DNA from: a virus
Lineage: Duplodnaviria; Caudoviricetes
DNA: 64,000 bases
Reading direction: 5' to 3' (one strand)
Virus record (IMG/VR): IMGVR_UViG_3300025120_000040
Location: 892 to 64,891 of that record
A program made the position numbers and the translations under genes. Of the stretch, positions 1,499 through 41,699 are shown in pieces (position 1 is the stretch's first letter; each line of letters starts with the position of its first letter). A model generated the notes under the pieces. The model had not been told where the DNA came from. It saw only the letters and a program-made list of their open reading frames with translations, and made no database searches.

Positions 1499-1814
1499 CA
1501 CTTGGGTACAGTTGACGAAGGATTTCGTCAAGGAATGGCCGGAGGTTCTAGAGGGATTACACTTCCAGAACATGCCGGTCAAGTACCTAATGTATATCAA
1601 TATCATACTAAAAAACAATCTCACTATACACTACGACATAGCCAAAGAGTTAAAAACGAAGAAGCAAGATACTATTGCTAGATTCTTAAAAAAAACGATA
1701 GAGCAAAACTATATGAAAATAAAAAGTGTGGATATGAAGTTTAACATACCTGCTTTGAAAAGAGATATGGAATCTCGGACTTCTTTGATTATGGCTAAAA
1801 CTTTTAAGAAATAG
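1470..1814 (+). CDS. hypothetical protein
   Basis: 114-aa ORF overlapping the upstream gene and converging on the enzyme cluster. Confidence 0.7.
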   Translation: MPKRQPPKNSTWVQLTKDFVKEWPEVLEGLHFQNMPVKYLMYINIILKNNLTIHYDIAKELKTKKQDTIARFLKKTIEQNYMKIKSVDMKFNIPALKRDMESRTSLIMAKTFKK

Positions 1815-3102
1815 AATTGAACTTTTCTTTCAACCATTCTAATTCATAAGACAGCATTAAGGCTTCTTTATCACCATTCACTTCTTTGTAGTATTCTACG
1901 GCATCGAGAGCACCTCTTTGTACCAGCAGTGCATATCGACCTTTACCAAGTTCACACCATTTCTTCAGTCTAAATTGAGATTGGACGGTTGGTTTCATCT
2001 CACACAATTTGAGTACTTCTCTAAATGCTACACGCCAACTTATCTCAGGTGACTGATTGAAATGACTTGTTCCACACAACTGAGGTACTACTGTGTGTGG
2101 TTGCGATAGTGTGAAATCTAAATTAGGATGTATTGTGGACAAGCAAAGACGTTTGTTGTACAATATCACCGCCCTGTGTCCGTACTCTAAACCGGTCACT
2201 GGATTTTTAGCATGGAAAATATAATGACAGGCTTCTCGCAGTCTATCAGGTTGAAAAGTGAAGTCAAACTTATCATCTAATTCTATTGTGGGGAATACTG
2301 CAAAGAAATAATCTGTATCACTCATAGCGGCCGCAGTGTGGTACGCCTGTGTCCTTCCTTTGACTCCTTGTATTCTTTTGGCCCTAGGATATTTCTCTTT
2401 TAACACTTGCCAATACTTTTCAGCACTTGGTTCATCGTAAGACAGGAACACTATGTCCATGAGTTTTGTTTCGTAATCATAGTCAAAATGTACATGCCTA
2501 TCAAAATCATATAACTGTTTGATGCTTCTACCACTCGGTACTAGTATGATATCTTTTGTTTTACCCCAAGTATACATCTTCTCGTCTTCCCAGAAACTAG
2601 GATAAAAATTAGGTTTGTCCACATCACAGTGTCGATTGGTCATCCATGTGTAAAATTCAGTGCCCGTGTTGTACGCATTCACTGGATCGGAAAGTTTGAA
2701 CGTGGTGGTAGACAGAGGGCGTTGGAACAAAGTTGGATGAGCATGGAAGTTGATATCTTTGAAATCACGCAGGAACTTGAGGCCATGCATCTGTTTTTTG
2801 AATTCCTTTGTTGGGATCAACATCACATTGCCTTCTTGATTTAGTCCTCCCATGGGGTGCGTGGTGTACCAAACGTGAAGTTGATCACGCTCGTGCTGTT
2901 CAGGTATGTAATCTACATCAATTGTTTTTAAATCAACAAAGTTGGCAAAGAACCAGAAGTACTCTGTTTCAATATCATCCACAACTGCTTTTAGAATATC
3001 AAGGTAACTGCCAACAAATGGTACGACCCTGGTGTTCACCAGCGGTGACTCCATGTGCTTCACATGTTGGAATCTAACCTGTATACTGTCGAATCCAGTC
3101 AT
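1804..3102 (-). CDS. glycosyltransferase-like protein (two GT-A-like halves)
   Basis: C-terminal half (MDIVFLSYDEP...AKRIQGVKG...AAA.SDTDYFF) is clearly paralogous to 14109..15005. Confidence 0.6.
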   Translation of the reverse strand: MTGFDSIQVRFQHVKHMESPLVNTRVVPFVGSYLDILKAVVDDIETEYFWFFANFVDLKTIDVDYIPEQHERDQLHVWYTTHPMGGLNQEGNVMLIPTKEFKKQMHGLKFLRDFKDINFHAHPTLFQRPLSTTTFKLSDPVNAYNTGTEFYTWMTNRHCDVDKPNFYPSFWEDEKMYTWGKTKDIILVPSGRSIKQLYDFDRHVHFDYDYETKLMDIVFLSYDEPSAEKYWQVLKEKYPRAKRIQGVKGRTQAYHTAAAMSDTDYFFAVFPTIELDDKFDFTFQPDRLREACHYIFHAKNPVTGLEYGHRAVILYNKRLCLSTIHPNLDFTLSQPHTVVPQLCGTSHFNQSPEISWRVAFREVLKLCEMKPTVQSQFRLKKWCELGKGRYALLVQRGALDAVEYYKEVNGDKEALMLSYELEWLKEKFNSIS

Positions 3103-4027
3103 AGTAATTTTCCAATCCTTGCCTCAGCGAGAACTCTGGTTCATACTCTAAGAGATCCCGTGCCCTACTGATGTCCAGTGTTCCTCTCATTGGATACAAT
3201 TTGTGCATTCCTATGTCCACTATATCAGAATCACTTCCTGTGATATCTACTATTGTCTCGGCCAGCGTCCTTAGGCTGGTTGCGTTACCCGCCGTGATGT
3301 TGAAACTGGTATTGGCAACTTCTGAACTTGCGGCCTTTATGATACCATATGCGGCATCCTGCCTGTAAGTGAAGTCAACTTTGTTCTCACCATTGTGCAA
3401 TTCTATTGTTTGATTGTTCATTGCCTTCGCAAAAAACTTAGATACCACCCTGTCTGGAAGATCTCCAGGTCCGTACACCCCACTGGGTCTTACTATTGTG
3501 TAATTCAGTCCATCTCTTTTGGCGAAAAGTTTTGTTAACCTCTCACCTGTAAGTTTTGCCTCGCCATATATGTTCTGCGGCTTCGTGCTTGAATCTTCCT
3601 TTGTTCCGTCTACGAAATCACCGTACACCATGCTACTGCTGATGTATACAAATTTCTTTGTGTCAAATTCAGCGGCATGCCACAGTAGGTTGGTCGTTGT
3701 TCCGATCACCTTTGGTATACCTTCGATCGGATCTTGATCTACAATCTTGGCCCTGGGATATGTGGCCAAGTGTATCACGATATCGGGACGTGTAGAAAAT
3801 GCTTTCAGGCATACCAGTCTATCGAGTACGTCGCCTTTGATCACATTGACGTTGTTTTGTGACCAGTTGCGTGTTCTCCATGCGATAAGTTTGTTCAACT
3901 CTACCTTTGTCAGTATGTCATAGGTGTCCTCATTGTCTACACATGTGATCCTGTGTCCATCATTGGAAAGTTTTTCAATTATTTTGGATCCTATGAATCC
4001 AAGTCCGCCTGTTATTAGATATTTCAT
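3074..4027 (-). CDS. NAD-dependent NDP-sugar epimerase/dehydratase (extended SDR)
   Basis: TGGLGFIG Rossmann motif, SSSMVYG, YGEAK (YxxxK), VYGPG. Confidence 0.92.
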   Translation of the reverse strand: MKYLITGGLGFIGSKIIEKLSNDGHRITCVDNEDTYDILTKVELNKLIAWRTRNWSQNNVNVIKGDVLDRLVCLKAFSTRPDIVIHLATYPRAKIVDQDPIEGIPKVIGTTTNLLWHAAEFDTKKFVYISSSMVYGDFVDGTKEDSSTKPQNIYGEAKLTGERLTKLFAKRDGLNYTIVRPSGVYGPGDLPDRVVSKFFAKAMNNQTIELHNGENKVDFTYRQDAAYGIIKAASSEVANTSFNITAGNATSLRTLAETIVDITGSDSDIVDIGMHKLYPMRGTLDISRARDLLEYEPEFSLRQGLENYYDWIRQYTG

Positions 4028-5496
4028 CCTAGAACTTTTACCCCGTATTTGTTGGTAAACGCTTTACCGTCTTCTCTATCGTTTACGATCGGTTGTCCTT
4101 TTATGTTCAGACTGGTGTTCAAAAGTATCGGGCAACCCGTCTGTTTTTTCCATTCCGTTAACAAAGCATGAAACCCTGGATTATCCGTCTTACGCACCGT
4201 TTGAACCCTAGAAGTGTGATCATGATGTATTATGGCAGGGAAGTCTTTACCAGCAGTACACGCCGCTGTAAATTGCATATAAGGGGTGTTTTGAACTGCT
4301 TTAGGCAGGGTGAAATACTCGTGTACATCCTCTTCCAATATGGCCGGAGCGAACGGTCTGAACTTCTGTCTTTTCTTTATTGAGTTTACCAAATCCTTGA
4401 TGTCCTCACCCCTGGGGTCTGCCAACAGTGATCTATTACCAAGTGCCCTAGGGCCAAACTCCGCCCTGCCACTTGCCACTCCCACCATCTTGTTTTCCTT
4501 CAATTCTTTTATCAGACTGTCCACAGGGTATTCACCATCTATGTTGTGTCCAAGGAATGGGTGTTCCCACTTGAGGTGTCTCTTGTGGTGTGCGGCTATG
4601 CAACCCAGGCTAGATCCCGAATCTCCAGGGTTGGGTATTATCCATATGTTGTCAAACAATCCTAGATTCGCAAGTGTTCTGTTTGCGGCACAGTTCAACG
4701 CTACTCCGCCAGCGTATACTAGATTCTTACTGCCATACTTGGATGCCCTCAGGAAGAGGTCTGCAAGTATTTCCTCCGTGACTGCCTGTATGCTCGCGGC
4801 AATGTCCATAACATCTGCTTCTGGATGCCAGTCTTTCAATCCTCTGTGTAAATTCTTCTTAAGTTTGAACGGTGACTGATAAACGAAGTCATCGTATATC
4901 TGTTGTTTGTACTTTGGTGTGCCATATGCGGCCATGCCCATCAGGATGTATTCCTCTTCTGCAGGTTTCAGTCCACAACGGTGTGTGAATGCAGAATATA
5001 ATATGCCCACCGAGTGTGGATAGTTGATTGTTTCTTTCCTCTCGATCCAAATTTTATCAGCAGTGGATATGCTGACTGTCTCCCATTCGCCTATCGCATC
5101 AACTGTTAGAATAGTTGCACCTTCGTCTTTGAACGGCGACGTGAAATATCCTGCCGCGGCGTGTGAGTCATGATGTTTAACATACTCGTCGATTTTGATG
5201 TTGAACATATCCAAATGCCACTGTGGCATCTCTGTATAACTTAATGCTGTCCCCCACTGTCCTGCATACAGTTGTCTCGTTTTCTTTAACAGAGGCTTCT
5301 CATAGTAAACGACTTTGTCGAATGGTCCGAATGTGTTTGCTTCATTTACTATTGCCCAATTTAAGTAATGATCATTTTTAACTTTTGAATAACGTTCCGA
5401 GTGTGCGGCCCATAATATCTCACCTATGCCTGAACTGTAATCAACAACACTCATAGAAGCATCATGATTCATACAGTTTATTCCTAATATTTTCAT
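4024..5496 (-). CDS. carbamoyltransferase, NodU/CmcH family
   Basis: ILGIN..HDAS, ERYSKVKND, HHDSHAAAGYF, GGVALNC, EFGPRALGNRSLLADP, FRPFAP, LLNTSLNIKGQPIV. Confidence 0.95.
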   Translation of the reverse strand: MKILGINCMNHDASMSVVDYSSGIGEILWAAHSERYSKVKNDHYLNWAIVNEANTFGPFDKVVYYEKPLLKKTRQLYAGQWGTALSYTEMPQWHLDMFNIKIDEYVKHHDSHAAAGYFTSPFKDEGATILTVDAIGEWETVSISTADKIWIERKETINYPHSVGILYSAFTHRCGLKPAEEEYILMGMAAYGTPKYKQQIYDDFVYQSPFKLKKNLHRGLKDWHPEADVMDIAASIQAVTEEILADLFLRASKYGSKNLVYAGGVALNCAANRTLANLGLFDNIWIIPNPGDSGSSLGCIAAHHKRHLKWEHPFLGHNIDGEYPVDSLIKELKENKMVGVASGRAEFGPRALGNRSLLADPRGEDIKDLVNSIKKRQKFRPFAPAILEEDVHEYFTLPKAVQNTPYMQFTAACTAGKDFPAIIHHDHTSRVQTVRKTDNPGFHALLTEWKKQTGCPILLNTSLNIKGQPIVNDREDGKAFTNKYGVKVLG

Positions 5497-5930
5497 TTAC
5501 TATGTGGTCCTATGTTGCCGTGCTTTTCTAATATATCCTGCTTGATCAAGAACGCCCACATTGTTGCTTCCATGTGTCCCACTTTGAAATCGTAGTGTGT
5601 TGGTTCTACAAACATTTTGTTTGTGTCCTCGAATCTACCTTCTTTGATCGTGTCCATCCATACTGTGTAATCTGCATCAAATTCTGTTCTTGTTTGATCT
5701 GTCGGACAAATAAAATCTGCTATCACGACTCTATTTTTATCAATGGCTTCCTCCGCAAATGACCACATCCTCAACGACTGCCTCTTTCTACCTTCGGGTG
5801 AAAAGTCCCAATCGTCTGCTTCCTTCCTAACTTCATCTGCATTCAACCATACAGCATTGAACATAGGCACCAGTAATTTTGCCAAAGTTGTCTTACCTGA
5901 TCCAGGCAAACCCATTATCAGTATCTTCAT
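5493..5930 (-). CDS. cysC: adenylylsulfate (APS) kinase-like protein, short phage form
   Basis: Walker A GLPGSGKTT, WLNADEVR, DWDFSxEGR, DFICP; only 145 aa. Confidence 0.75.
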   Translation of the reverse strand: MKILIMGLPGSGKTTLAKLLVPMFNAVWLNADEVRKEADDWDFSPEGRKRQSLRMWSFAEEAIDKNRVVIADFICPTDQTRTEFDADYTVWMDTIKEGRFEDTNKMFVEPTHYDFKVGHMEATMWAFLIKQDILEKHGNIGPHSK

Positions 5931-6817: not shown

Positions 6818-6922
6818 TTATTTGTATATGAATGGGTCTTTCTTCTTTAATTCTTTTAATCTTTTCCTGTAAGCTCTTTCCTGTTTGAACTTCAGCCAAA
6901 GATTTTTTATCCATGTGAACAT
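6818..6922 (-). CDS. small basic hypothetical protein, 34 aa
   Basis: Read manually: MFTWIKNLWLKFKQERAYRKRLKELKKKDPFIYK. GGAGG RBS; fills the gap exactly. Confidence 0.7.
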   Translation of the reverse strand: MFTWIKNLWLKFKQERAYRKRLKELKKKDPFIYK

Positions 6923-7713
6923 TATTTTCCTCCTGTTAATTTATTAAACATTGGTAACATTAATTTTACAGCATCTCGGTGTGCTTCGTCAAGTGGATGT
7001 GTAGTGGCTCTGGGATAATCTTCCATCAATGTCCATTGATTGAAACCCATCATCCTTGGTCCAAAACTAAACCATTTGGTAAAATCTATTTCATCGTGTA
7101 GTGCCTTCATGAAATTATCCTGGTCTTTGTGCTGTTCAAACTCCTTGTAAAACAGGCTGTTGTCTGCTAGTGTGAACAAGAATGGTATTTGCTTCTTCTC
7201 AAGTATGTTCTGTAACCAGATAATGCTCTTCCAACTGAGATAGGTCTCATGATATTGGTTTGCACCGTGCTTGTATATGGCTTCTGCGAACGGTTGCACT
7301 CCGGTCTCAACCATTGAGTCTGCTCTACGTTTCCATTGTTCCAATTGTACTTCTGATCCTGCAAGTGCTTGATGTCTTTCATCACTTGCCATTTTTGTAT
7401 CCCATGGCGATATTGTTGTCCAACGTGTCTTTTCTAAGTCCTTGTGCCTGGACATGGCCCAGTCATACCTGGAGAGGAAACTCCACATCACTATCACACA
7501 CCCTATATCATCATTGTTGTGGACTGCATCAAATACACGCCTGGCTATCCCCGAGTTGCCACTGCCTGGGTGTGCCGTACATACATATTCATGATCTGTT
7601 GGCTTTAGCCTGTATGCCCATGATTTTTTGCTTGGCACTTTGCCATTTTGGTCGTCACTCAACTCATGACCAAAAGTGAAACTACAACCACCTGCTATTA
7701 ATTTTTTACTCAT
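6922..7713 (-). CDS. SGNH/GDSL-like hydrolase/acyltransferase-fold protein
   Basis: GGCSFTFG block I, PGSGN block II, C-terminal THP...AH. Confidence 0.6.
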   Translation of the reverse strand: MSKKLIAGGCSFTFGHELSDDQNGKVPSKKSWAYRLKPTDHEYVCTAHPGSGNSGIARRVFDAVHNNDDIGCVIVMWSFLSRYDWAMSRHKDLEKTRWTTISPWDTKMASDERHQALAGSEVQLEQWKRRADSMVETGVQPFAEAIYKHGANQYHETYLSWKSIIWLQNILEKKQIPFLFTLADNSLFYKEFEQHKDQDNFMKALHDEIDFTKWFSFGPRMMGFNQWTLMEDYPRATTHPLDEAHRDAVKLMLPMFNKLTGGK

Positions 7714-8884
7714 ATATCTGTAATACTTTATTTAAAAGTGGAAACATATCACCAAAATTTTCTTTCCTATACTGATCTGTTTGCAATATTCTTCTTTTTC
7801 TTTCTGCACGTATCTCCGGAGAGTCTCTGTCAGCGGCGTTCATGAATCTTATGCTTGGTTGGTAGTCTGTGAGCATGTTATACCTGTCTGTGACTATGTC
7901 CTTTACCTGCCGTGGTAATGTCTGTATGTTGAACACATCAGGATCAAAGCAAGTGTTCACATAAAAGAACTTAGGTTGGAACTGTGCCACCCACAATGCC
8001 ATCTTGGCCCAATTGAACACATTGAATATATTCACTGTTGAACATATTTGAAAGTCCATGTTAGGTGTTTTCATTTCTTTAAACTTAACAAGATTCTGGT
8101 TCACTTCTCTCCACTTTGCAGGATGTCTTTGATACTCGAAAGGTTCTCCCACGTCATCAATGCTGAACGCTACTTCCACGTGCTTGAAACAACTCCATAG
8201 GTCGAATATTTCCTGTGGTGGTAACTGTGTGCCGTTGGTGTTGTAGTGTATGTCTATGTTCTTGGCATATCCCTTCTCGACACAGTGCATCAGTATTTTA
8301 AAGTGGTCCTTGATCATGAACGGTTCGCCGCCTGTGAATTCAAAGTACTCCACATATTTTAGATCCTCCTGCAACTCCTCAAAAAATTGTGGGTTACGTT
8401 TTGGCCACCCGCCTTCTTTCAATTGTTTTCTAGCAACAAGATTATCTCCTCCCTTGGCCGTTTCATAATCTATTTCTTCCTGAGCCCATTTTGATGAACT
8501 CCATGATCCGCATATCCTACATTTTAAATTACACACGTTGCCCAACTTAAAGTCAATAAACTTGAGGGATGGCTCGCTATTAGGTGTCCAGTTTTCTAAA
8601 CTGCTACGCATTTTGTAGATCGAGTTTTGTCTTTTGGATGTTTTGCCAGCGTCTTCCTCCTGCCAACAGCTCTGACAACCTTTAGGACGTTCACCGTTTC
8701 TAAATTTTGTTCTAAGATTGTCCATGTATTCCGTATCTTGTATAGACTTAAGACTTTGTTCGTACACTTTGACACCAGGAATACTGCCCTTGTACAAACA
8801 GCAAGGAGACGCACCACCATTTACATCAACTTCTAAATGATTCCACGGTAATGGGCATATGTTTGAATCTATATACTTGTCCAC
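7706..8884 (-). CDS. radical SAM protein with N-terminal twitch domain
   Basis: CPLPW..PCC..CQSC, CNLKCRIC, GGEPF, YNTNG. Confidence 0.92.
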   Translation of the reverse strand: MDKYIDSNICPLPWNHLEVDVNGGASPCCLYKGSIPGVKVYEQSLKSIQDTEYMDNLRTKFRNGERPKGCQSCWQEEDAGKTSKRQNSIYKMRSSLENWTPNSEPSLKFIDFKLGNVCNLKCRICGSWSSSKWAQEEIDYETAKGGDNLVARKQLKEGGWPKRNPQFFEELQEDLKYVEYFEFTGGEPFMIKDHFKILMHCVEKGYAKNIDIHYNTNGTQLPPQEIFDLWSCFKHVEVAFSIDDVGEPFEYQRHPAKWREVNQNLVKFKEMKTPNMDFQICSTVNIFNVFNWAKMALWVAQFQPKFFYVNTCFDPDVFNIQTLPRQVKDIVTDRYNMLTDYQPSIRFMNAADRDSPEIRAERKRRILQTDQYRKENFGDMFPLLNKVLQIYE

Positions 8885-10152
8885 CAGTCTAACACCCTTT
8901 CATCTCTGCTTAATATTTTGGTTATATCCTGTCTTCTGATCTTGTCAATACTTTCTTGTCTCTGTTTTCCTTGTTTAGTTGGTGTAAAGGTTTCTCTATT
9001 CTTTAAATTTTTTATTACCTCTATTAATGCTCTCTGTTTTCGTGTGGCAAGAGGTTCCATGTATGCCAGTGCTTCATCGATGAGTGTGTGTAGCAGTTCT
9101 TTGGGCAGTGCTAATGGACTTAGAATCTCGTCATTACTAAAAGTAAACATAACTTTTGTTAATATCTCTGTGTCCAACTCTCTGCTTAAATCGAACATGT
9201 TTTTAAGTTCTAGTAAACCCGGCATTGTTATCGTATAGTCTAATCTCATCTCCCTGGCTGTTTTTGCCACTGCCATTCCTTCTTTGAAATTGCGTAACCA
9301 CTGCTCATAGTTTAATCCGTCTCTGATGTACTCGCCAACTTCTCCTGTTCCGTCCAGTGATGAACATATCTGCCAGTCTTGGAACTGTGGCAGTAAGTCA
9401 AACAGTTTAATTCCTTTGAATGATGTTCTACTTAGATTCGTGTTGTATCTCACATACACTTCTTTTGCGAATCCTAATTCTATTATTCTCTGCATGGCTT
9501 TCCAATGCATATCCCACATCAGAGGTTCTCCACCGCACCAGTATATTTCTTTTATTCTTTTTGTTTCTACTGCTTCAACAAACTCTTGTACAACCTGTGT
9601 GTCTTGAAATTTAATGATTTGTTCTCTCAAAGGTGATGCCATCCATGGTTGTGATTCTTTGGTCCATGTTTTGTTCTTCCTAGATTCTGCTTCCCAACTA
9701 CTACTTAACATATCACCGCACATCCTACATTTGAAGTTGCATAGGTTGTTGAATCTATAATCAAAACTGATTGTCTGCATTGTAGTTGCACCTGTTTCAT
9801 CTGTGCTGTCGTACGCTTCATCTACCCTGTCATTAAACAACTGATTCCAGTATGATCTGTATACATCTGTGTTTAACAGTTTGTGATCACACACTTCACA
9901 CTCTGACAGTTCTTCTCCTGCCATCATACGCAGTCTAACAGATTTCATATGCTCTGAATTCCAGTGTTCTTTCAGTGTTAGTGGTTTATATTCTTTAGCG
10001 TCATTGCCTGTGTCAATGTACTGTTTGAAACTTTGTGCAGGTTCTCTAGATGCACAACAAATACGTCTTTCTGTCTGCGGTGACAGATACGTGTGTGTCC
10101 ACGGTGCCATACAGAATGTTTTGTTACCTTCGCTAGGTTTAATTCTCTTCAT
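8869..10152 (-). CDS. radical SAM protein with N-terminal twitch domain
   Basis: CMAPW..ICC..CEVC, CNFKCRMC, GGEPL, YNTN. Confidence 0.92.
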   Translation of the reverse strand: MKRIKPSEGNKTFCMAPWTHTYLSPQTERRICCASREPAQSFKQYIDTGNDAKEYKPLTLKEHWNSEHMKSVRLRMMAGEELSECEVCDHKLLNTDVYRSYWNQLFNDRVDEAYDSTDETGATTMQTISFDYRFNNLCNFKCRMCGDMLSSSWEAESRKNKTWTKESQPWMASPLREQIIKFQDTQVVQEFVEAVETKRIKEIYWCGGEPLMWDMHWKAMQRIIELGFAKEVYVRYNTNLSRTSFKGIKLFDLLPQFQDWQICSSLDGTGEVGEYIRDGLNYEQWLRNFKEGMAVAKTAREMRLDYTITMPGLLELKNMFDLSRELDTEILTKVMFTFSNDEILSPLALPKELLHTLIDEALAYMEPLATRKQRALIEVIKNLKNRETFTPTKQGKQRQESIDKIRRQDITKILSRDERVLDWWTSI

Positions 10153-11422
10153 ACAATTCCTTCAATTCAGGAAATGTTTCAAGGATATTTTCGTCTCTGA
10201 TCACGTCCATCTTTTTCATTGTGTCTTTGAACTGTTGCATGTCTTTGCTGTTGTCTCTTCTCATCATGTAGTCCAACCCAGATTCAAATCCCTTGGTTGC
10301 CCTGGTGAGATTATCTAGAGGACGCAACCATTCTAGGTGTGACTCGATCTTCTCTTTGACTCTTTGTTTGTATGAGTCTGGTAAAAGATCAATCCTCTGT
10401 GCGTATGGATACTGCAATAAGTTGAAGTTGAAATCTTGTGGTTTCAATAATCCTTGATCTACCCAATTCCTGTGGAAGTCTGATATGTGTAATGCATTTA
10501 TAAGTCCAACTGTGCTTGATATGTAGAAGTCTACTTGCGGACAAACTTCTAACATACGTTTCCTGTTTGCTATTACGTCTTTCCACACAGTGCCTTTACG
10601 CATGTATTCTCCCCTGGCACCTTCTGCGTCTAGACTTGCACCTATCGATACTGAATCAAACTTGTTCCATAATTCCAACACGTCAATGTCTTTGTATTTT
10701 GTTCTTGTGAAGTTTGTGTTGTAAATTAATCTCACGTGATACATCTTACGTCTGTCCAATTCTTTTAATATCCTGTAGTGTTCTTCCATGATTATTGGTT
10801 CGCCACCTGCGAAGTAAAACTGTTCCACATGTTCGAACTGTTCCAACATCTGATCCCATATGTCATTACTGCTACGGCCAACTTTCATTATCTTCGCATG
10901 ATTGGGAGGAGAACCTGTAAGTTTTTTGTGATCTTCATACCAATTACTGCTGAACCATGTACCACAACTTCTACACGCTAGGTTACATAGGTTACTGAAT
11001 CTTATATCCCAATACTTTATGACGAAATCTGCTGTGCCATCTTCCTGTGTGTTCTCAACCATACCTATGTTGTGTCCAAAGTGTTTGTTCGAACTTAGAC
11101 GCAGTGAGAAGAACCCCGACTTCTCTTGATCATAACATTTCGTACAATGTTTGCTTGGCTTTGCGGCCAGCATGTTTTTCCTTATACCCTTCATCTCATC
11201 GTTGTTAAAGACTTCTTCCATTGAATTCTTGTTAAGATCACCAACAGGATATTTGTCCAATGCAAAACAACAAGGGTACGCTCTACCGTCAGGGAAAGCA
11301 TGTATGTGCAACCATGGCATCATACAGAATGTGTCATTGTCTATCAACAACTCCTTCTCTTTAGGAGTCATATCTTTGATCTTTAGTTTCTCAGGCTCTT
11401 TGGCGCCATAATCATATGCCAC
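10139..11422 (-). CDS. radical SAM protein with N-terminal twitch domain
   Basis: CMMPW..PCC..CTKC, CNLACRSC, GGEPI, YNTN. Confidence 0.92.
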   Translation of the reverse strand: MAYDYGAKEPEKLKIKDMTPKEKELLIDNDTFCMMPWLHIHAFPDGRAYPCCFALDKYPVGDLNKNSMEEVFNNDEMKGIRKNMLAAKPSKHCTKCYDQEKSGFFSLRLSSNKHFGHNIGMVENTQEDGTADFVIKYWDIRFSNLCNLACRSCGTWFSSNWYEDHKKLTGSPPNHAKIMKVGRSSNDIWDQMLEQFEHVEQFYFAGGEPIIMEEHYRILKELDRRKMYHVRLIYNTNFTRTKYKDIDVLELWNKFDSVSIGASLDAEGARGEYMRKGTVWKDVIANRKRMLEVCPQVDFYISSTVGLINALHISDFHRNWVDQGLLKPQDFNFNLLQYPYAQRIDLLPDSYKQRVKEKIESHLEWLRPLDNLTRATKGFESGLDYMMRRDNSKDMQQFKDTMKKMDVIRDENILETFPELKELYEEN

Positions 11423-12755
11423 TATACCATTCTCCTATTATTGGGAAAGTCTTTTCGAAGTTCTTTCCTGATCTTTTGTCGTATTGACTGTAAAACGCTT
11501 TGAAGTCTTTCTGTAGTTTACTTTGTTCGGCCGCACCTGCATGTGGTGTTTTGACAACATCTAAATAATCTATAAGTCTCTGTGTTTGGTTAGTTTCCAT
11601 ATGTTCTAGATGTTTTTCATTGTTATTTAAAAACTTTACCAAGTCTCCTTTAAATTTATTTCTTAGGTCATCGGGTAGCACAAGAGGTGATTGGAAGCTC
11701 GGGAACCGTAATATGTTCAATGTAAAGTTGACCTTCGGTCCATACACCTTACTTGCACTCTTGAACCATATTATCCTCTCTAGCAGTTCTGGCAACGACT
11801 CTAAACACAGTGCATTTATGGTACACATATTATGAATCTCTGATGGGACTTTATCAACCATCATGTGTAAGAAATTTGAGAACCATTCGCCGTAATCTAA
11901 TCCGTCTCTGATGTATTCGCCTTGTTTGTGTGTTGCTTCCATGCTGGTATACAGATGAAAGTTTTTAAATCCTTTTAGTTTAGTTTTGAATCTATCAATA
12001 ATGCTTTGCTTTGCACCCAGGTTAGAGTTGATTGCAATACGTATATCAGGATTCATTTTTTCACCTTGTGTTTCTATCCAATCTAACAGTCTCCACAAGT
12101 TGGGTGACATCATAGGTTCTCCACCTGTTATCCTCAGTTCATCTAAACTCTTGTGTAGGTCCGTTTCCCACCATTTGTAAAATGCTTCCACGTACGGATT
12201 TGTTTCGTCTTTCTTGTATGGCTCTGCACTTTCATGACTGTGTGTGAAGTGATTACGCCCATCTGTTTTCATATCTGTGTATGGTCCTTGCCTCTTGATA
12301 TTGTTTGCCCACGTAGAACTAAATGCAGGATTACAATATGTACAAGCAAAGTTACAGGTCCTATCGAATGCTATCTCCAGTGTCTTTAGATTGACATCTG
12401 TGTCAGCATCAGTTTTGTGTGCGTAGTCCAATGCTTCGTTTGTGAATATTTTTGATTTGTAGACCCTGTCGCTAATATTATCTCTTTTGATATCTTCTAT
12501 CTTCCAGCAGTATTCACACCCTTTTGGTCTGTCGCCGCACTGCATCTGTTTACGTTCTGCTTTCTTTTGTACTGTGTTGTGTATTGCACTAGGATTTGTT
12601 TTTATTGCTTCAAGATCAATCTTGTGCGGAAGTGGATGGTGACAACTTGTGGTCATACCACTACCCAACCATATTGTTGCATTATACCATTTGGCTCCGC
12701 AGAAACTTGCTGACTTAGGATCCAGTATTTGTTTTTTATATTCTAAATCGTTCAT
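11412..12755 (-). CDS. radical SAM protein with N-terminal twitch domain
   Basis: CGAKW..SCHHP..CEYCW, CNFACTYC, TGGEPMM. Confidence 0.92.
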   Translation of the reverse strand: MNDLEYKKQILDPKSASFCGAKWYNATIWLGSGMTTSCHHPLPHKIDLEAIKTNPSAIHNTVQKKAERKQMQCGDRPKGCEYCWKIEDIKRDNISDRVYKSKIFTNEALDYAHKTDADTDVNLKTLEIAFDRTCNFACTYCNPAFSSTWANNIKRQGPYTDMKTDGRNHFTHSHESAEPYKKDETNPYVEAFYKWWETDLHKSLDELRITGGEPMMSPNLWRLLDWIETQGEKMNPDIRIAINSNLGAKQSIIDRFKTKLKGFKNFHLYTSMEATHKQGEYIRDGLDYGEWFSNFLHMMVDKVPSEIHNMCTINALCLESLPELLERIIWFKSASKVYGPKVNFTLNILRFPSFQSPLVLPDDLRNKFKGDLVKFLNNNEKHLEHMETNQTQRLIDYLDVVKTPHAGAAEQSKLQKDFKAFYSQYDKRSGKNFEKTFPIIGEWYSGI

Positions 12756-14122
12756 GCGTTTTTACACTCCTCCCAGAATTCTTCCATCTCAGGGAAAGTG
12801 TTCAATAAGTTTGTTTGTCTTCTCCGATCGTGTTCGTTAAAAAATGCGTAAAAATTCTTTTTTTGTTGCGTACTTACGTCCGTGTTTTCTCGCCAGTATG
12901 CGAGATTGCGTTGCATTTTTTGAATCTCGAAGTCCTTGAATATGTGTAACCCGTTGTCCTCCCCGGAATGGTTCTGCATGTACTTAATGTTATCCTCATG
13001 TATGCTCTGGTACGCCTCCGGTAGCATCGTGATCTGTTGCCATGCGGGTTGCCTCAGCAGTGGCACATCGAACCACACTCTCTGGTAGGTCTTTGAGTAC
13101 TTGGTACGCAGTTCCAATATTTTCTCCAGCAGTTTATCCATGCTCGTGATACTTAGATTGTTGTATGTGCATATGAATGTGATGGAATTACGACCCGGGA
13201 TCCTGTCAAGAAACTCCTCCACGTTGTCCATCATGTAGTTGAAATCCAGGCCGTCACGTATGTACTCCGCACGTTTGCCAAATGCGTCAACTGACACGAA
13301 CTGCATCATGTGTTCAACCTTCTCCTGCATACATATCTCCTGTGCCATGTTGAAGTACTTCTCTTTCAACTTCTTGTCTGGTGGACACATGTTACTGGTC
13401 ACGTTGAGGTGCAGATCTTGTTTGGGATGATCTATTATGTACTGGAAAACCTTGTAGGTGTTCACGTCCATCATGGGTTCACCACCGGTCATACGGAAGT
13501 GCTTTAAATTCTTGTACAGTGTTGGCCACCACTTCCAGAAAGCGGTCACGTAAGGGTTCTCCTCCCTGTTGGGTATGGGCTTCCTGCGACCTTGGAAGTG
13601 CTCTGGTGCGTTGTGGGAAGGGGTGGTAGGATATTCGCCGTATCTGTCCACCTCCTTGGCCCACGTGGTCGAGAACTGTGGTGAACAATAACTGCACTTG
13701 AAGTTACAAGCGTTGTTGAAGTTCACCTCCACGTATCTCGGCGTCCAATGTTCGTCTATTGGATTCTTTCTAATATCCTCGAAGTCCTGCATGGCCCATG
13801 GCTCACCAGACCTGTAGTGCCTGTCTGACATCTCCCCGGTCTTCTCCATGTTCCAGCAGTATGAACAACCCTCGGGTTGTTCTCCCTGGAGCATCTGTTG
13901 TCGTTGATTCATTTTCTCTGCGGTGTTGTGCAGTGCGGCTGGATTGTTTTTCAACTTCTCTGCATCAATGTTGTGCAATGGTGGATGATAGCAACTGTTG
14001 GTCAGTCCCGTGGGCAGGTGCAGTGAGGTCTGATTCCACTTGGCCAGGCACATGGTAGGAGAAACTGTCTCGAGTATTTCCTTGGCCTTCAATGCGTCCT
14101 GTTTGTAGTTACTGGTACTCAC
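12752..14122 (-). CDS. radical SAM protein with N-terminal twitch domain
   Basis: CLAKW..SCYHP..CSYCW, CNFKCSYC, TGGEPMM. Confidence 0.92.
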   Translation of the reverse strand: MSTSNYKQDALKAKEILETVSPTMCLAKWNQTSLHLPTGLTNSCYHPPLHNIDAEKLKNNPAALHNTAEKMNQRQQMLQGEQPEGCSYCWNMEKTGEMSDRHYRSGEPWAMQDFEDIRKNPIDEHWTPRYVEVNFNNACNFKCSYCSPQFSTTWAKEVDRYGEYPTTPSHNAPEHFQGRRKPIPNREENPYVTAFWKWWPTLYKNLKHFRMTGGEPMMDVNTYKVFQYIIDHPKQDLHLNVTSNMCPPDKKLKEKYFNMAQEICMQEKVEHMMQFVSVDAFGKRAEYIRDGLDFNYMMDNVEEFLDRIPGRNSITFICTYNNLSITSMDKLLEKILELRTKYSKTYQRVWFDVPLLRQPAWQQITMLPEAYQSIHEDNIKYMQNHSGEDNGLHIFKDFEIQKMQRNLAYWRENTDVSTQQKKNFYAFFNEHDRRRQTNLLNTFPEMEEFWEECKNA

Positions 14123-15005
14123 GGTCTTGCACTCCCTTGTTTATGTGCGGAGGGATGACGAACCGATAGAACCTGCTGTCATCGTCATCGTACTCCGCAA
14201 TTGGCATGTCCAGTTGTTGCCTCAGGCTGTTACCGTACATCAACAGATCTGTGTCTATGTCTGTAGGTGACTGATCCTTGTAGTACAACTCCATGTTATC
14301 CAGATCACGTATCTTGAAATGCTCATTTTTGGCCTCTATCACTGTGTTGAAACAACCCATCCTCGCTCCCAACATGGCGTACTTGCCAAACTCTACGTCT
14401 GCACCCACTGTACACCAAGTGCTGAGTGTCCTCAGATTAGTCGGCCACACTTTTTGGAAATCATTGGCAGGTATGGGTTTGCCTTTGTTCGTACTCATTT
14501 TTACACCCTCCCTGAAGCCTGCCACAAAGGCCTGCTGTTCAGAACCATTTATTATGGTAGTGGAGTAACAGTTATGCAGATTCTCATGTGGCACACCCCA
14601 GCAGAAATCTATCTGGTTCTCCTCCGAGTCAGCATTCTCGTGTGTCCTCATGTTCAAGCACGTTTCCTTTGACCAACCAACTAGTCCTCCATTACCGTAC
14701 ACTAGCCCATTAATGTTATTTTTTGCTCGCCAACGATGAACTGCCTTGGGATCGGTCTTCGTCCAATCTAGGGTTTGTAATAAAAAAGTTTCATCAATAA
14801 CGTTGTCACCGTCAACACTTATAAAGAAGTCGGTCTCTGCCAACTCGGCCGCGGCCTTATGGGCGTTGTCAAACCCCACAACACCATCAACACGCTTGGC
14901 CCATGGCACCTTGTTCTTGAGATCCGCCCAATTCTCTTCCTTGTTGGGCTCCTTGAAACTGATGTACACGAAGTCCAGTTCGCTTATTCTCGTTCTATCA
15001 GCCAT
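14109..15005 (-). CDS. glycosyltransferase-like protein (GT-A fold)
   Basis: DFVYISFKEP...AKRVDGVVG...FISVDGDN (DxD motif), LVYGNGG. Confidence 0.7.
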   Translation of the reverse strand: MADRTRISELDFVYISFKEPNKEENWADLKNKVPWAKRVDGVVGFDNAHKAAAELAETDFFISVDGDNVIDETFLLQTLDWTKTDPKAVHRWRAKNNINGLVYGNGGLVGWSKETCLNMRTHENADSEENQIDFCWGVPHENLHNCYSTTIINGSEQQAFVAGFREGVKMSTNKGKPIPANDFQKVWPTNLRTLSTWCTVGADVEFGKYAMLGARMGCFNTVIEAKNEHFKIRDLDNMELYYKDQSPTDIDTDLLMYGNSLRQQLDMPIAEYDDDDSRFYRFVIPPHINKGVQDREYQ

Positions 15006-15286
15006 GCTTTGCCTCCTTCCACTATTCCTGTGGGCCAGTGTATGTCATCGTCTTGGAACACATATCCTTTTTTTGCTTCTTTTAAAACGCTGTATTGTGT
15101 TTTTGGTTTTGGCTTTGGCTTCAACACTATCTCACCATCTTTGATCATTAGCTCTTCTTCATTGTACTGTAGTGCCCACAACTTCTTGTCATGGGTCACT
15201 TCGTGTTCTACGCCATCAACAGTCACAAAAAGTTTCCTAGGTTCTCTCTTTGGCAGATTCGCCATTGCCTCAAAAAATCCTGGCAT
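14984..15286 (-). CDS. hypothetical protein
   Basis: ORF track 14984..15325; ATG 15286 (MPGFF) preceded by AGGAG. Confidence 0.7.
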   Translation of the reverse strand: MPGFFEAMANLPKREPRKLFVTVDGVEHEVTHDKKLWALQYNEEELMIKDGEIVLKPKPKPKTQYSVLKEAKKGYVFQDDDIHWPTGIVEGGKAWLIERE

Positions 15287-16064
15287 GTAACTCCTTGTTG
15301 TGATAGTGCCAAACTCTGCTGACACGTGTTTCGCCTATGTACACTGCATCTCCGGATCTGTTGGGATATAGATATTCGTTTTGATCCTTTGCCCTCATGG
15401 TATTGTTTACACCTGGTTTGTGATGAATGAATTTAAACCAATCATAATCTATAAGATCACAGGCAGTAGGATCCATAATCCTATATGCCAACGCAAACAC
15501 CACGTCTGTGCTAGGGTATTCGTCATGACACGAAATCAACATCTGTGTTTTGACCTGTTTCCAATTCTTCACTATGTGTTCTGCTATCTCATAGAATTTC
15601 TTTGCTTTTGCACTCCTACGGAAATACATCAATCCATTGTAGATATTGGGTAAATGGTTCCTCATGAACAATTTCCTGTATGGCGTTTGTTTTACAACAT
15701 TGTCCCGGTAGTCAAAACAGTCAACACTGAATACTAAATCGTGTTGCCACAGGTGATTCCACCACCAATCAGTGTTTGTGGTCCACAACATGTCCGCCTC
15801 CAATTTTATTGTGTGTGTAAAAGGTGTGAGACGGAACGCTTTGTACTCGTTCGCCCATTTGATATCGTGCAAGGCACTGTCGTCTTCCCCTATGACTTTC
15901 ACTACGTCAACGTGTTCGCTGGAAAATTTACTTGATTGATCTGTCACCACACATACCTTGTTGTTTTTGTTCCAACGTTTTATGCTCTTGGCCAAAGTTA
16001 TAGACAGTTCCACATAATCAACTTTGCCATTGTTCTGTGCGAACCAAAGAAATCCTTTAGACAT
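15270..16064 (-). CDS. glycosyltransferase-like protein (GT8/nucleotide-diphospho-sugar transferase-like)
   Basis: Start 16064 (MSKGFLWFAQN) after AGGAG; TPF.HTIKLEADM, YNGLMYF, TDVVFALA; paralog of 16057..16809. Confidence 0.65.
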   Translation of the reverse strand: MSKGFLWFAQNNGKVDYVELSITLAKSIKRWNKNNKVCVVTDQSSKFSSEHVDVVKVIGEDDSALHDIKWANEYKAFRLTPFTHTIKLEADMLWTTNTDWWWNHLWQHDLVFSVDCFDYRDNVVKQTPYRKLFMRNHLPNIYNGLMYFRRSAKAKKFYEIAEHIVKNWKQVKTQMLISCHDEYPSTDVVFALAYRIMDPTACDLIDYDWFKFIHHKPGVNNTMRAKDQNEYLYPNRSGDAVYIGETRVSRVWHYHNKELHARIF

Positions 16065-16809
16065 TGAATATCTCCTTGTTGAGTACATGGACATCTTGAT
16101 TTTGTACACAGGATATCTGATCATTGTATTTCCATGCAATACCTTCATTGGTCATCTCAACCACTTCGCAGTCTGGCGGCAGTGTTGCCAATGCAAATGG
16201 CATCTTTTCGTAGCCCACAAATCCGTTTATCTGTTGCAGTGCCATTGCGAACAGATAGTCATTACGTAGATTCTTGGCATATATCCTGTACATCTCGTTG
16301 AAGTAATTGTAGTTCTTCTTTATGTATTTTACCGTGTCAAATATCTTTCTGGTCTTTTCGTTTTTCTTGAACAGTAGCACAGTCGCCCACACCATGGGTA
16401 TCATGCTCCACTTCCTTTGATCAAACGTGTTCCTGCCTGTCAGATCATATGCTGTGTCTGGCACAAGGAAATCATATTCTGTGTCAAAGAGCTCTAACAA
16501 GTTGTCCGTGAAACAGAAATAATCGATGTCCATCACAAGCGTCTTGTCGTATGGAGAAAGTTCGTAGGCAAGATGCCTATCTACATTGTTCCAAGATTTT
16601 CCCAGTTTGGTGTTACCCAGTTCTGGTTCAATGAATTTGTAATTTATAAAGCCCAATGGTTTGATTTTACAGAAAGTTTCAAAGTTAGTCACTACGGTGA
16701 TTTCTACTTTGAGATTTTTCTTTACTAGGGCCACACACCTCTCCAGTATCTTGTGATACCGTGTGTGTTCTGTGTCAAAACAGAATAGTAATACTCCTTG
16801 CGTCATCAT
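16057..16809 (-). CDS. glycosyltransferase-like protein (GT8/nucleotide-diphospho-sugar transferase-like)
   Basis: SPYDKTLVMDIDY (DxD), WATVLLF, RNDYLFAMA, HVLNK. Confidence 0.7.
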   Translation of the reverse strand: MMTQGVLLFCFDTEHTRYHKILERCVALVKKNLKVEITVVTNFETFCKIKPLGFINYKFIEPELGNTKLGKSWNNVDRHLAYELSPYDKTLVMDIDYFCFTDNLLELFDTEYDFLVPDTAYDLTGRNTFDQRKWSMIPMVWATVLLFKKNEKTRKIFDTVKYIKKNYNYFNEMYRIYAKNLRNDYLFAMALQQINGFVGYEKMPFALATLPPDCEVVEMTNEGIAWKYNDQISCVQNQDVHVLNKEIFNV

Positions 16810-17123
16810 TCACCTTTTTTTGTAAAAGTTTCGTATATTTGGTGATATGCGTTCAAGGCCTCCTGGTTCCGTTCAATCAATCTTGCTAGGAAATCGTCTG
16901 CGTCTGTTATCTCAACTGGATTTTTATTTGTGTCCAGTATGAAAAACTTACTGCTGTTTTCCTTTAGTGTCCTCACAAGACATATTGTCCCAGGATCGGC
17001 ACGGAAAAGATTTCCATTATATGCCAGTACCTGTCGTGAGTGTGCTTTCTCCAGAGCGTTGCGTTTTGCGATCGCTATGTCGTAAGAAAGATCTGATTGT
17101 TTTTTGAGTTCGCGAATATCCAT
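16806..17123 (-). CDS. hypothetical protein (first gene of the enzyme cluster)
   Basis: ORF track 16806..17138; ATG 17123 (MDIRELKK) lies at the predicted transcription start. Confidence 0.7.
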   Translation of the reverse strand: MDIRELKKQSDLSYDIAIAKRNALEKAHSRQVLAYNGNLFRADPGTICLVRTLKENSSKFFILDTNKNPVEITDADDFLARLIERNQEALNAYHQIYETFTKKGE

Positions 17124-17129
17124 ACCACA

Positions 17130-17158
17130 ATTATACAATAATTATGGTTAAATTTCAA
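17130..17158 (-). promoter_or_regulatory. sigma70-type promoter of the enzyme cluster
   Basis: Minus strand TTGAAA (17158-17153), 17-nt spacer, TATAAT (17135-17130). Confidence 0.7.
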
Positions 17159-17174: not shown

Positions 17175-18131
17175 TTATGACTGCGAGTTACTAACCTGTG
17201 TGTTTGAACTTGATTGTATCGCCGCCGACAATCCGCCACCTGTTGTTGGATGTATTTCCGCCAACTGTAGTGTCATCGCTGGTGCTTCATTGGGGTTGGC
17301 CGGTGTACCTGCTGTGTTACCTGCAGTGTAAGTCTCGTCACCCGCTGGGTCTGATGCCACAGATTTGATAGTGATCACTGTTGCTGATCCAACTGACGCA
17401 TCCAACTTGGCAAATATCTCTAACGTGTCTGAAGTGTAACCCGAGTTGTTTGAAGTCAATTTACACAAAGATGTGTATGATGTACCCAGGTCATGGAAAC
17501 CAGTTGAACTAGCAAGACTAGTCTGTGTCTCACCTGAACCTGATCTCGAAGTTGCGTGTCCACTCATGTCAATGTTGCCCATGGCCGCTTCCAGTTCTTG
17601 GAACACAGTGTCCTTGTCACCGTCAGTTGAACCTGAAGTGCCTGGATTACATCTGATTTTTCCACCTGCGTTGAAGAAGTGTCTCATCTTGTCCGCATTG
17701 GCGAAGGTAACTGATCTCTCGATGGTTGATGTTGAGTTCCATGTTCCACTGTTGGTGCTTGTACTTAATGTGTTTGTAGTTACTGCTGATGTGCTTGTAC
17801 ATCCGCCGTTCACTGATGCCGCCAATGTTGCTAAATCTGCCGCAACCGCCGCCTTAATTTTGATAGGATCACCTGCTGTGATCTGACCTCTTGCTGTCAT
17901 TGTATCACCTGTGTGACCTGCAATGGTATCAACACCTGCAAGTAGAGTGTTCCACTGTGATGCGTTGATTGTTCCTGTCGCCGCTACCACTGTTGGAATG
18001 TGTGTTTGACCAAGACCGTAAGTACCTGAACCCGTTCCTGCGAAATGGTTGTATCCGAATGGACTTGAACTGTTGTTTACGAATATGTTGTACTCGTCAT
18101 CTAAAATTTTATCACCTGCTGTATATGCCAT
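17175..18131 (-). CDS. virion structural protein (tail/baseplate-associated)
   Basis: Ser/Thr/Gly/Ala-rich 318 aa starting MAY; FFNAGGKIR; located at the end of the fibre module. Confidence 0.65.
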   Translation of the reverse strand: MAYTAGDKILDDEYNIFVNNSSSPFGYNHFAGTGSGTYGLGQTHIPTVVAATGTINASQWNTLLAGVDTIAGHTGDTMTARGQITAGDPIKIKAAVAADLATLAASVNGGCTSTSAVTTNTLSTSTNSGTWNSTSTIERSVTFANADKMRHFFNAGGKIRCNPGTSGSTDGDKDTVFQELEAAMGNIDMSGHATSRSGSGETQTSLASSTGFHDLGTSYTSLCKLTSNNSGYTSDTLEIFAKLDASVGSATVITIKSVASDPAGDETYTAGNTAGTPANPNEAPAMTLQLAEIHPTTGGGLSAAIQSSSNTQVSNSQS

Positions 18132-18135
18132 ATTG

Positions 18136-19764: not shown

Positions 19765-19949
19765 TACTCATCATCCCTTATTGCTGTCAACATGCTAACA
19801 TCTCCTAACAGATCTATGAGTGTCTCTGCCAGTAAAGGTTTGGCAGGATGATTCTTAATGGAATCCCCTAGAGTCTTGATCTCCTCAGCCGTCAATATAT
19901 TATCTATATTGGCATTGATGTAGTCTGCTACTTCTGTCTTCGTGATCAT
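19764..19949 (-). CDS. small hypothetical protein
   Basis: 61-aa ORF coupled to both neighbours; similar to 19949..20176. Confidence 0.6.
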   Translation of the reverse strand: MITKTEVADYINANIDNILTAEEIKTLGDSIKNHPAKPLLAETLIDLLGDVSMLTAIRDDE

Positions 19950-20176
19950 TAGTTATTGTCCCCGTTCTTGGCTATATTTTTCACCATTACTGTTTCGCCA
20001 ACAAGTTTCACAAGTATTTTCGCTATGTCTGGTGTTACCCAGTTGACCATTAGTCCTAACCTAGTAGCATTGTACCCTTCTGTCGCAGGCTCTTCCCAAT
20101 ATTTTACAAAGGCATCGTTTCCACCTTTTTGCCACTGGCTATCTATGTATTCTGTTACTTGTTCTTTGGTTGCCAT
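19949..20176 (-). CDS. small hypothetical protein
   Basis: ORF track 19949..20257; ATG 20176 (MATKEQVTEYI) lies just after TTAAATA. Confidence 0.6.
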   Translation of the reverse strand: MATKEQVTEYIDSQWQKGGNDAFVKYWEEPATEGYNATRLGLMVNWVTPDIAKILVKLVGETVMVKNIAKNGDNN

Positions 20177-20184
20177 ACTTGTAT

Positions 20185-21753: not shown

Positions 21754-21757
21754 GGGA

Positions 21758-23173: not shown

Positions 23174-23203
23174 TTTGTATATTTATTACGCCCTTACTGG
23201 TTA

Positions 23204-25368: not shown

Positions 25369-25377
25369 CTAGTGTAT

Positions 25378-41657: not shown

Positions 41658-41671
41658 TGTAATTACAATGG

Positions 41672-41679
41672 TATTTATA
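41672..41679 (-). promoter_or_regulatory. T4-type late promoter TATAAATA
   Basis: Exact TATAAATA on the minus strand, 14 nt upstream of the gp6 ATG. Confidence 0.75.
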
Positions 41680-41699
41680 TGTTAGGAAATGTGCGTATA

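Follow-up and report, generated by a model that had tools for sequence, protein, structure and literature searches.

Why does a phage keep five genes for radical S-adenosylmethionine (rSAM) enzymes side by side, and on what might these enzymes act? The question is raised by a 64,000-nucleotide stretch of the viral record IMGVR_UViG_3300025120_000040 (positions 892 to 64,891 of that record; hereafter the window, numbered from its first letter), in which consecutive, overlapping minus-strand genes at 7706-14122 encode five paralogs with a cysteine-rich domain ahead of the rSAM core. A preliminary description, drawn from the sequence, had seen in these genes a multi-step assembly line acting on glycans made by flanking glycosyltransferases (GTs). 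Our analysis shows that the five belong to one conserved minus-strand string, which also holds a gene for a GT-A-fold protein, two possible GT8-like genes, an SGNH-like hydrolase candidate, a carbamoyltransferase and a sugar epimerase/dehydratase. With a probability that we put at roughly 0.45, we read the array as an optional, stepwise tailoring system acting on a glycoconjugate, its putative substrate, that comes from the GT-like module.

The five genes are numbered p1 to p5 along the window, with p5 transcribed first and p1 last. Their products each match NF033640 (N_Twi_rSAM, 'twitch domain-containing radical SAM protein', NCBIfam; curated cut-off 170 bits) end to end, with scores of 299.5-415.3 bits. 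The first gene of the array is p5 (12752..14122; 456 amino acids (aa); 326.8 bits), followed by its sister type p4 (11412..12755; 447 aa; 299.5 bits), p3, which lies nearest the family consensus (10139..11422; 427 aa; 415.3 bits), p2, the most variable among relatives (8869..10152; 427 aa; 321.6 bits), and p1, the last (7706..8884; 392 aa; 364.6 bits). From p1 to p5, neighbouring open reading frames (ORFs) overlap by 16, 14, 11 and 4 nt, which are upper bounds since each ORF start was set at the first possible start codon. Two further copies bring the matches over the cut-off in the whole 64.9-kb record to seven: a sixth gene of 358 aa on the plus strand (51347..52423; 202.8 bits), beside Mre11/Rad50-like genes, and a seventh of 344 aa on the minus strand (54152..55186; 178 bits, just above the cut-off), beside a SegE-like GIY-YIG gene. 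Sequence profiles thus show all seven to be genuine N-terminal-twitch rSAM genes, as the preliminary description had claimed. That description had also called the family one of unknown function, which agrees with what we found: NF033640 comprises 7,316 clusters (50% identity) at E ≤ 1e-30 in a library of 1.84 billion proteins, its best PDB sequence match (E 3e-7) covers the rSAM core only, PDB sequence searches returned no solved structure of a close relative, and a literature search on the family names (NF033640, N_Twi_rSAM, N-terminal twitch, N-terminal SPASM) returned no paper about it. A literature search combining radical SAM, jumbo phage and glycosyltransferase likewise returned nothing, and neither megablast of the five-gene array against cultured phages nor tblastn of p1 against plasmids gave a match.

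In an alignment of the seven proteins (numbering of p1, 7706-8884) the N-terminal cysteines C10, C28, C70 and C73 are invariant, as are C118, C122 and C125 of the CX3CX2C motif, S130, W133 and G185-G186-E187, and all seven cysteines are invariant or nearly so across the ortholog alignments. The CX3CX2C motif, the N-terminal cysteine cluster and the GGE noted previously are thus present in every copy, while the exact SS-x-W and GGEP are not: the S-x-x-W that directly follows CX3CX2C in all seven reads S-T-T-W in p5, and the seventh copy has GGET. Pfam SPASM was matched N-terminally in three of the seven (p1 residues 10-74, p2 14-89, p3 33-97), and an AlphaFold2 (AF2) model of p3 reached a predicted local distance difference test score (pLDDT) of 93.8. 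Each protein is predicted to carry two clusters, a SAM-cleaving [4Fe-4S] cluster on CX3CX2C and one fully Cys-ligated auxiliary cluster in its four-Cys N-terminal domain; at two predicted [4Fe-4S] clusters per enzyme, one copy of each of the seven would take up about 56 Fe atoms. Like the SPASM/twitch enzymes anSME, CteB and SkfB, the window proteins pair a partial TIM-barrel core with a Cys-ligated auxiliary [4Fe-4S] domain recognised as SPASM, but this domain lies N-terminal to the core instead of C-terminal as in anSME/BtrN-type enzymes and, unlike that of the solved SPASM/twitch enzymes, has only four auxiliary cysteines, enough for one cluster. In BtrN and anSME the 5'-deoxyadenosyl radical abstracts a hydrogen atom and the auxiliary cluster moves an electron; by analogy, the window proteins likely share this logic of hydrogen-atom abstraction followed by electron transfer to the auxiliary cluster, although BtrN itself was not among the matches listed.

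No known single-function family accommodates the paralogs. The anSME model (NF010321) scored 38.7 bits against a cut-off of 441, and in the Cys-rich domain only; MoaA (TIGR02666) reached 29.9 bits at best against 284, prokaryotic viperin (NF038283) 18.8-31 bits against 180, and QueE and the named peptide maturases were also rejected as family assignments, all of these falling far below their cut-offs. Nor do the five look like recent copies of one another. In the seven-paralog comparison p4 and p5 are 34% identical and all other pairs 18-27%, and each paralog type has closer relatives elsewhere, with library representatives 35-58% identical to one particular paralog and p3-type proteins of Bacteroidota 32-39% identical to p3. 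Because the paralogs share only 18-34% identity and have closer relatives elsewhere, a recent tandem duplication was rejected, and sequence comparison shows the tandem five to be anciently diverged paralogs. The two subtypes proposed earlier hold for the p4/p5 pair (genes at 11412 and 12752), whereas the other three form no tight group. The median identity of p2 to its relatives is 55%, versus 76-83% for the other four, and the hidden Markov model (HMM) scores of p2 orthologs, the fourth rSAM gene of the related loci, fall into two groups (~300-360 and ~400-476), which suggests that two alternative p2 forms may circulate in the clade. Of the 150 best library representatives, 33 are natural proteins in which two or three N_Twi domains are fused, one of them (P0123) in the p5-p4 order of the window, a coupling of paralogs that we count in favour of glycoconjugate tailoring. 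Ten longer, multi-domain forms were also scanned: a GT2 domain is present in one (P0255), TPR repeats in two (P0243, P0268) and a subtilase domain in one (P0180). A prediction of a p5-p4 complex, with each partner given as an alignment, scored 0.00, which delivers no verdict and is evidence for neither side.

The array was compared across 62 related IMG/VR loci found in a scan with p3 (50-95% identity). All five rSAM genes occur in the same order in 53 of them, and in the other nine the array reaches the end of the locus; because it is kept in 62/62 loci, the five-gene array is not a product of chance. The gene directly upstream of p5 (14109..15005, minus strand; overlap up to 14 nt) is present in all 62, the two possible GT8-like genes in 59 and 58, the SGNH-like gene in 55, the carbamoyltransferase in 50 and the sugar epimerase in 44. 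Extra genes within the array of relatives encode a second SGNH-like protein, a 2-oxoglutarate (2OG)-Fe(II) oxygenase, a B12-binding rSAM and a conventional rSAM with C-terminal cysteines. In two loci a gene for an alternative oxidase (Pfam AOX, E 9.4e-79) sits between p3 and p2 (L029:11214-11891 and L054:11271-11894), a curious placement for an oxygen consumer amid oxygen-sensitive Fe-S enzymes. Five longer related contigs carry 5-11 N_Twi genes each, and two of the five encode an A-type Fe-S carrier (PF01521, 59 and 51 bits; G307:C1:77208-77516 and G308:C1:39800-40105), which fits the heavy Fe-S demand of so many rSAM genes per contig.

The constant partner of the array, 14109..15005, encodes a DxD-bearing protein whose AF2 model adopts a GT-A (Rossmann-like) fold (pLDDT 87.7). 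All 11 Foldseek matches at E ≤ 0.001 are glycosyltransferases, with probabilities of 0.95-1.0 and template modelling (TM) scores of only ~0.3; the top matches are the SunS/ThuS S-glycosyltransferases, WrtF, GalNAc-T, K4CP and PBCV-1 A64R (E from 8e-5). All 19 aligned orthologs keep D65-G66-D67, which, in our own reading, would be a functional DxD metal/nucleotide-sugar motif. Further upstream, and all on the minus strand, lie a possible GT8-like gene (15270..16148), whose profile of 25 orthologs matched glycogenin-1 in the PDB weakly (E 0.015) over the N-terminal 100 residues only and which has no Pfam match; its distant paralog (16057..16809; E 2.3e-6 to the HMM of the 15270 family); and, at the head of the module, a gene for a small conserved protein of 110 aa (16806..17138; 54/62 loci). 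The flanking GTs of the preliminary description therefore stand for one gene, at the level of fold, and are hinted at for two others, none of which reaches a curated GT model.

On the other side of the array, directly after p1 and again on the minus strand, 6922..7713 encodes an SGNH/GDSL-like hydrolase candidate. Its invariant S11, G50, G52, N53 and D242-x-x-H245 would, as we read them, form SGNH blocks; it has no Pfam or PDB match, and its nearest named Atlas clusters, both viral, are DUF6071 (0.97) and GDSL-like (0.96). There follow, on the same strand, two variable genes, for a PagP-like protein (5927-6307; phrog_3600, E 5e-8; 8/62 loci) and a small APS-kinase-like P-loop kinase (5493..5930; Pfam APS_kinase 1.8e-8; 12/62 loci), then a carbamoyltransferase of the NodU/CmcH type (4024..5496; Carbam_trans_C 1.3e-54, Carbam_trans_N 6.7e-42), an NAD-dependent sugar epimerase/dehydratase (3074..4027; Epimerase 5.3e-42, GDP_Man_Dehyd 1.2e-31) and a protein whose C-terminal half is paralogous to the GT-A-like gene (1804..3102; 3.8e-25 to the HMM of the 14109 family). 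For ten unannotated neighbours, Pfam searches relaxed to E ≤ 10 returned noise only, and comparing profiles of the GT-A-like and SGNH-like families with PDB sequences gave nothing meaningful.

How tightly the rSAM genes are bound to their GT-like partner emerged from a reverse search of IMG/VR with the GT-A-like gene, in which we analysed the best 80 loci of at least 598 matching stretches; 13 of the 80 belong to the clade of the window and 67 are more distant (41-47% identity). The GT8-like family lies upstream in 67 of the 67 distant loci, and N_Twi rSAM genes lie directly downstream of the GT-A-like gene in 47, with none in the remaining 20. Copy numbers of one, two, three, four and five were found in 22, 8, 7, 8 and 2 distant loci, respectively. 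The first rSAM gene after the GT-A-like gene is of p5 type in 40 of the 47, and the most frequent architectures form a nested series: p5 alone (20 loci), p5-p4, p5-p4-p3, p5-p4-p3-p1 and p5-p4-p3-p1-p2. All these counts are lower bounds because some loci are cut by contig ends. Among 50,697 records of cultured phages the GT-A-like gene was found only in Ralstonia phage RsoM2USA (MG752970), whose ORF348-354, all of the module annotated as hypothetical, resemble the window in having a small protein (a weak homolog of 16806..17138), two GT8-like genes (including a homolog of 16057..16809), the GT-A-like gene, an rSAM gene and a GT-A-like paralog, but with one rSAM of the p4/p5 type in place of five. 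Identity to the window is 39% for the GT-A-like protein and 35-36% for the rSAM (35% to p5 over 99% of its length), and according to PMC8504454 mass spectrometry of virions detected the products of the adjoining ORFs 356, 359 and 361. A minimal form, reduced to one rSAM gene, is thus carried by 22 of the 67 distant loci and by one cultured phage. Examination of gene neighbourhoods, which the preliminary description had proposed as a check, supports an association with GT-like and sugar genes, through the 47 distant loci, RsoM2USA, the N_Twi-GT2 fusion and the epimerase and carbamoyltransferase downstream of the array.

Because the gene sets are nested and the first rSAM is mostly of p5 type, we infer a stepwise order for the proposed tailoring of a glycoconjugate. 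The p5 enzyme would act with the GT-A-like enzyme on a first intermediate, and p4, p3, p2 and p1 would each remove hydrogen at some other position or on a later intermediate, the likely chemistry being oxidation, epimerisation or the formation of C-C or C-X bonds. The auxiliary cluster would take or pass an electron, by the analogy with BtrN and anSME, and the product would be a diversified glycoconjugate on an exposed surface. The nested sets fit the multi-step assembly line first proposed; its glycan substrate is less secure, given nearest folds that modify peptides and proteins and family copies without GT-like neighbours. A bolder and more doubtful proposal, which we hold tentatively, is that the GT-A-like protein and a p5-type rSAM form a hitherto unknown 'radical glycosylation' unit, extended by p4, p3 and p2/p1 into a stepwise radical pathway that would assemble sugars, carbon-modified or cross-linked, on virion proteins such as the tail fibres, with the number of steps varying by lineage to diversify the virion surface.

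Several observations weigh against an action on glycoconjugates, and some of them point elsewhere. None of the flanking genes matches any glycosyltransferase model in Pfam or NCBIfam, and 14109-15005 has no GT match there even at E ≤ 10; its GT-A assignment comes from a single AF2 model with the low TM scores given above, and the GT8 assignment depends on the one match at E 0.015. The 80 loci of the reverse search are the best-scoring ones and not a random sample of the matching stretches, and because 20 of the 67 distant GT-like loci are without rSAM genes, the GT module does not need them. Moreover, the closest solved rSAM folds (Foldseek, TM 0.33-0.41) are the peptide and protein modifiers CteB, anSME and SkfB, followed in the ranking by BlsE, which acts on a nucleoside sugar acid, and by viperins, which act on nucleotides. 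This ranking speaks for an alternative in which the rSAM enzymes directly modify a peptide or the tail fibres or another structural protein of the virion, through crosslinks, epimerised residues or a formylglycine-like oxidation of side chains, with the GT-like genes serving a separate purpose. The sactipeptide synthase CteB (E 4e-7), peptide-bound anSME, SkfB, SuiB and EpeE are all among the nearest folds, the array lies within a block of structural genes, and the natural fusions to TPR repeats and a subtilase domain would suit such a role, as would the 2OG oxygenase and B12-rSAM accessory set of relatives, which we take to be reminiscent of proteusin-type peptide tailoring. Yet the curated peptide-maturase models score far below their cut-offs (anSME 38.7 versus 441 bits), no small Cys-rich or repeat-rich ORF was noticed beside the array in the translations, though no systematic search was made, and neither the close and common link to the GT-A-like gene nor the presence of the sugar epimerase and the carbamoyltransferase would be explained, so that we consider direct protein or peptide modification unlikely.

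The family is also found in quite different company. The sixth and seventh copies in the window adjoin recombination and homing-endonuclease genes rather than GT-like genes, and six dispersed N_Twi copies in a related contig (G308:C1:66000-105999; L190, L191), spaced by ~2 to 14 kb, have as neighbours IMPDH, GTP cyclohydrolase I, DNA polymerase B, a phosphoribosyltransferase, peroxiredoxin-like genes and a second NAD epimerase. Because these other copies sit amid recombination, replication and nucleotide genes, the N_Twi family need not share one substrate class. The same settings are what one would look for if the array modified nucleotides or DNA in the manner of viperin or QueE and so protected the phage genome, an idea further encouraged by weak matches of all five paralogs to the viperin model (E 1.4e-7 to 7e-4, far below the cut-off), by viperin-like structures in the fold search and by the P-loop kinase and carbamoyltransferase of the gene string. 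The array itself, however, lies within the late structural block, away from the replication genes; the viperin, QueE and MoaA models reach 17-31 bits against cut-offs of 180-284; and no base-hydroxymethylase or DpdA-like gene was noticed near it, although no specific search was made. Nucleotide or DNA modification by the array is, in our estimate, improbable. As to the seventh copy, a gene for a SegE-type GIY-YIG homing endonuclease (55176-55868, minus strand; Pfam 2.5e-35) overlaps its start, and this overlap may explain how that copy came to be where it is.

The family is rare in cellular genomes: in a Bacteroidota sample 3 of 301 genomes, one of them the search centre, had matches over the cut-off, and all three had at least two such matches side by side. 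A Chitinophagales metagenome-assembled genome (MAG; G001:C1:128187-154277, which includes L071) has eight matches at E ≤ 1e-10, seven of them within ~12 kb and one ~13 kb further on, and a Chryseobacterium MAG (G002:C3:55930-65669, which includes L072) has seven N_Twi-like genes within ~10 kb. Since bacterial genomes also cluster their copies, multi-paralog clustering is a habit of the family and not peculiar to this phage. Genes for GDSL, PhyH and DXD-type GT proteins are among the neighbours of both clusters, one Chitinophagales copy (G001:C1:144847-145917) carries three in-frame TAA stops, and the system encoded by these clusters appears to be uncharacterised. A Pfam tally over 99 neighbours from ten Bacteroidota loci gave Radical_SAM 32, SPASM 30, GDSL 9, PhyH 7, Gly_transf_sug 4, GT2 2 and B12-binding 2. 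GTs thus make up only 6 of the 99, and the 25 families listed for these neighbours include none for polysaccharide export, two further points against a glycan substrate. HMMs of three phage partner families found no credible match among the Bacteroidota neighbours, and the bacterial accessory set (GDSL, PhyH, GT), whose likeness to that of phage relatives we otherwise count in favour of glycoconjugate tailoring, is for this reason alike by family name only. Carbamoyltransferase homologs adjoin N_Twi genes in 2 of 12 bacterial loci.

The GDSL lipase/acylhydrolase and PhyH genes of the bacterial clusters raise the prospect that the array acts on lipids or small molecules without glycans, such as envelope lipids, lipid A or a diffusible natural product. 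GDGT-MAS, which forms C-C bonds in lipids, turned up in the sequence search as well as in the fold search. A PagP-like protein is encoded in the gene string of the window (5927-6307), and Vibrio phage K566, whose N_Twi-like rSAM genes number at least three, has an annotated PagP gene ~5 kb from them (L064:16733-17182). Against this, the PagP-like gene occurs in only 8 of the 62 related loci, SGNH and PhyH enzymes serve many classes of substrate, and no core genes of lipid synthesis were noticed; we regard such a role as very improbable.

If, as we prefer, the array tailors a glycoconjugate, its position in the genome offers a clue to where that glycoconjugate might be displayed. The source is an uncultured marine jumbo myovirus, and the window carries T4-type genes (Mre11/Rad50-like, SegE-like, baseplate, portal). 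Its Rad50-like and portal proteins are closest to those of the jumbo phages PA5oct, Phosso and Atu_ph07 (41-52% identity; 49-52% for the portals). An origin in a pelagimyophage (HTVC008M-like) was considered and rejected, the nearest cultured homologs of portal and Rad50 being those of jumbo phages and HTVC008M being absent among the top matches listed. CheckV completeness was 18% for the 64.9-kb record and 55% for a 196.6-kb relative, figures from which we estimate a genome of ~350 kb for the clade. The rSAM array lies just downstream of a minus-strand structural block (17175..46172, from PHROGs matches and ORF translations) that runs from baseplate hub and wedge genes through a 4265-aa virion protein to three tail-fibre-like proteins and a Ser/Thr-rich protein of 318 aa (17175-18131), and then into the GT-like/rSAM module. 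Glycans on virion proteins, either the tail fibres or the Ser/Thr-rich protein, are favoured as the target over host envelope glycans because the module lies in a late structural block in two distant phages, because the nearest GT folds are protein-glycosylating enzymes and because the module varies between lineages.

A comparable arrangement has been described in other marine phages. For pelagimyophages, Zaragoza-Solas et al. (2020; PMC7029224) describe a 'host recognition cluster', a hypervariable island among the structural genes that lies beside a giant VrlC-type protein and carries tail fibres, variable rSAM cassettes and glycosyltransferases, most of them GT8; they prefer host envelope glycans as the target of these GTs. 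Unlike the carriers of that cluster, the window phage is no pelagimyophage. Nishimura et al. (2017; PMC5332604) describe a T4-like marine genome with 12 rSAM genes and Fe-S assembly genes, which shares with the window clade the joint presence of many rSAM genes and Fe-S genes in one marine T4-like phage but measures 183 kb versus our estimate of ~350 kb. To call the chemistry 'undescribed', as was done at first, is consequently too strong: marine T4-like phages had already been noted to carry numerous rSAM genes, as well as rSAM cassettes with GTs and tail fibres nearby. The rSAM family goes unnamed in both sources, and its gene order and partners are not analysed there, as far as the available parts go. 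What is new here is a defined partner gene (GT-A-like), a core p5 type, a nested order of paralogs and a minimal single-rSAM form, and because the partner gene, the likely order and the minimal form are now defined, the function of a large orphan rSAM family becomes testable with two or three proteins. If the radical glycosylation proposal were true, it would add a new class of glycan chemistry, encoded by marine jumbo phages of great abundance and, amid other neighbouring genes, by some Bacteroidota. Were the target a virion or host surface glycan, radical chemistry would join the host-recognition biology of ocean phages, and a surface glycan as target would help explain the heavy investment of these phages in Fe-S clusters.

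Some features of the region remain to be recorded. Contigs from RNA libraries cover 1800-18200 in 30 of 30 bins in two runs of one study, mostly at 88-95% identity, and in 19 of the 30 bins in a third run from another study; as such contigs cannot show transcription and these libraries may contain DNA, they are not counted as evidence of expression. The giant virion structural protein is a single ORF (25378-38175, minus strand; phrog_10938, 1098.8 bits) between the baseplate wedge and the tail-fibre-like genes. The three tail-fibre-like proteins (18136-19764, 21758-23173 and 23204-24643, minus strand) share a very similar N-terminal region of ~100 residues and diverge in the remainder, a sequence pattern as expected for exchangeable receptor-binding fibres with a common attachment domain. 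Among them, 20185-21753 (minus strand) encodes a 522-aa protein with long Gly-rich runs, and a Pro-rich ORF on the other strand at 21095-21595 is probably its antisense shadow.

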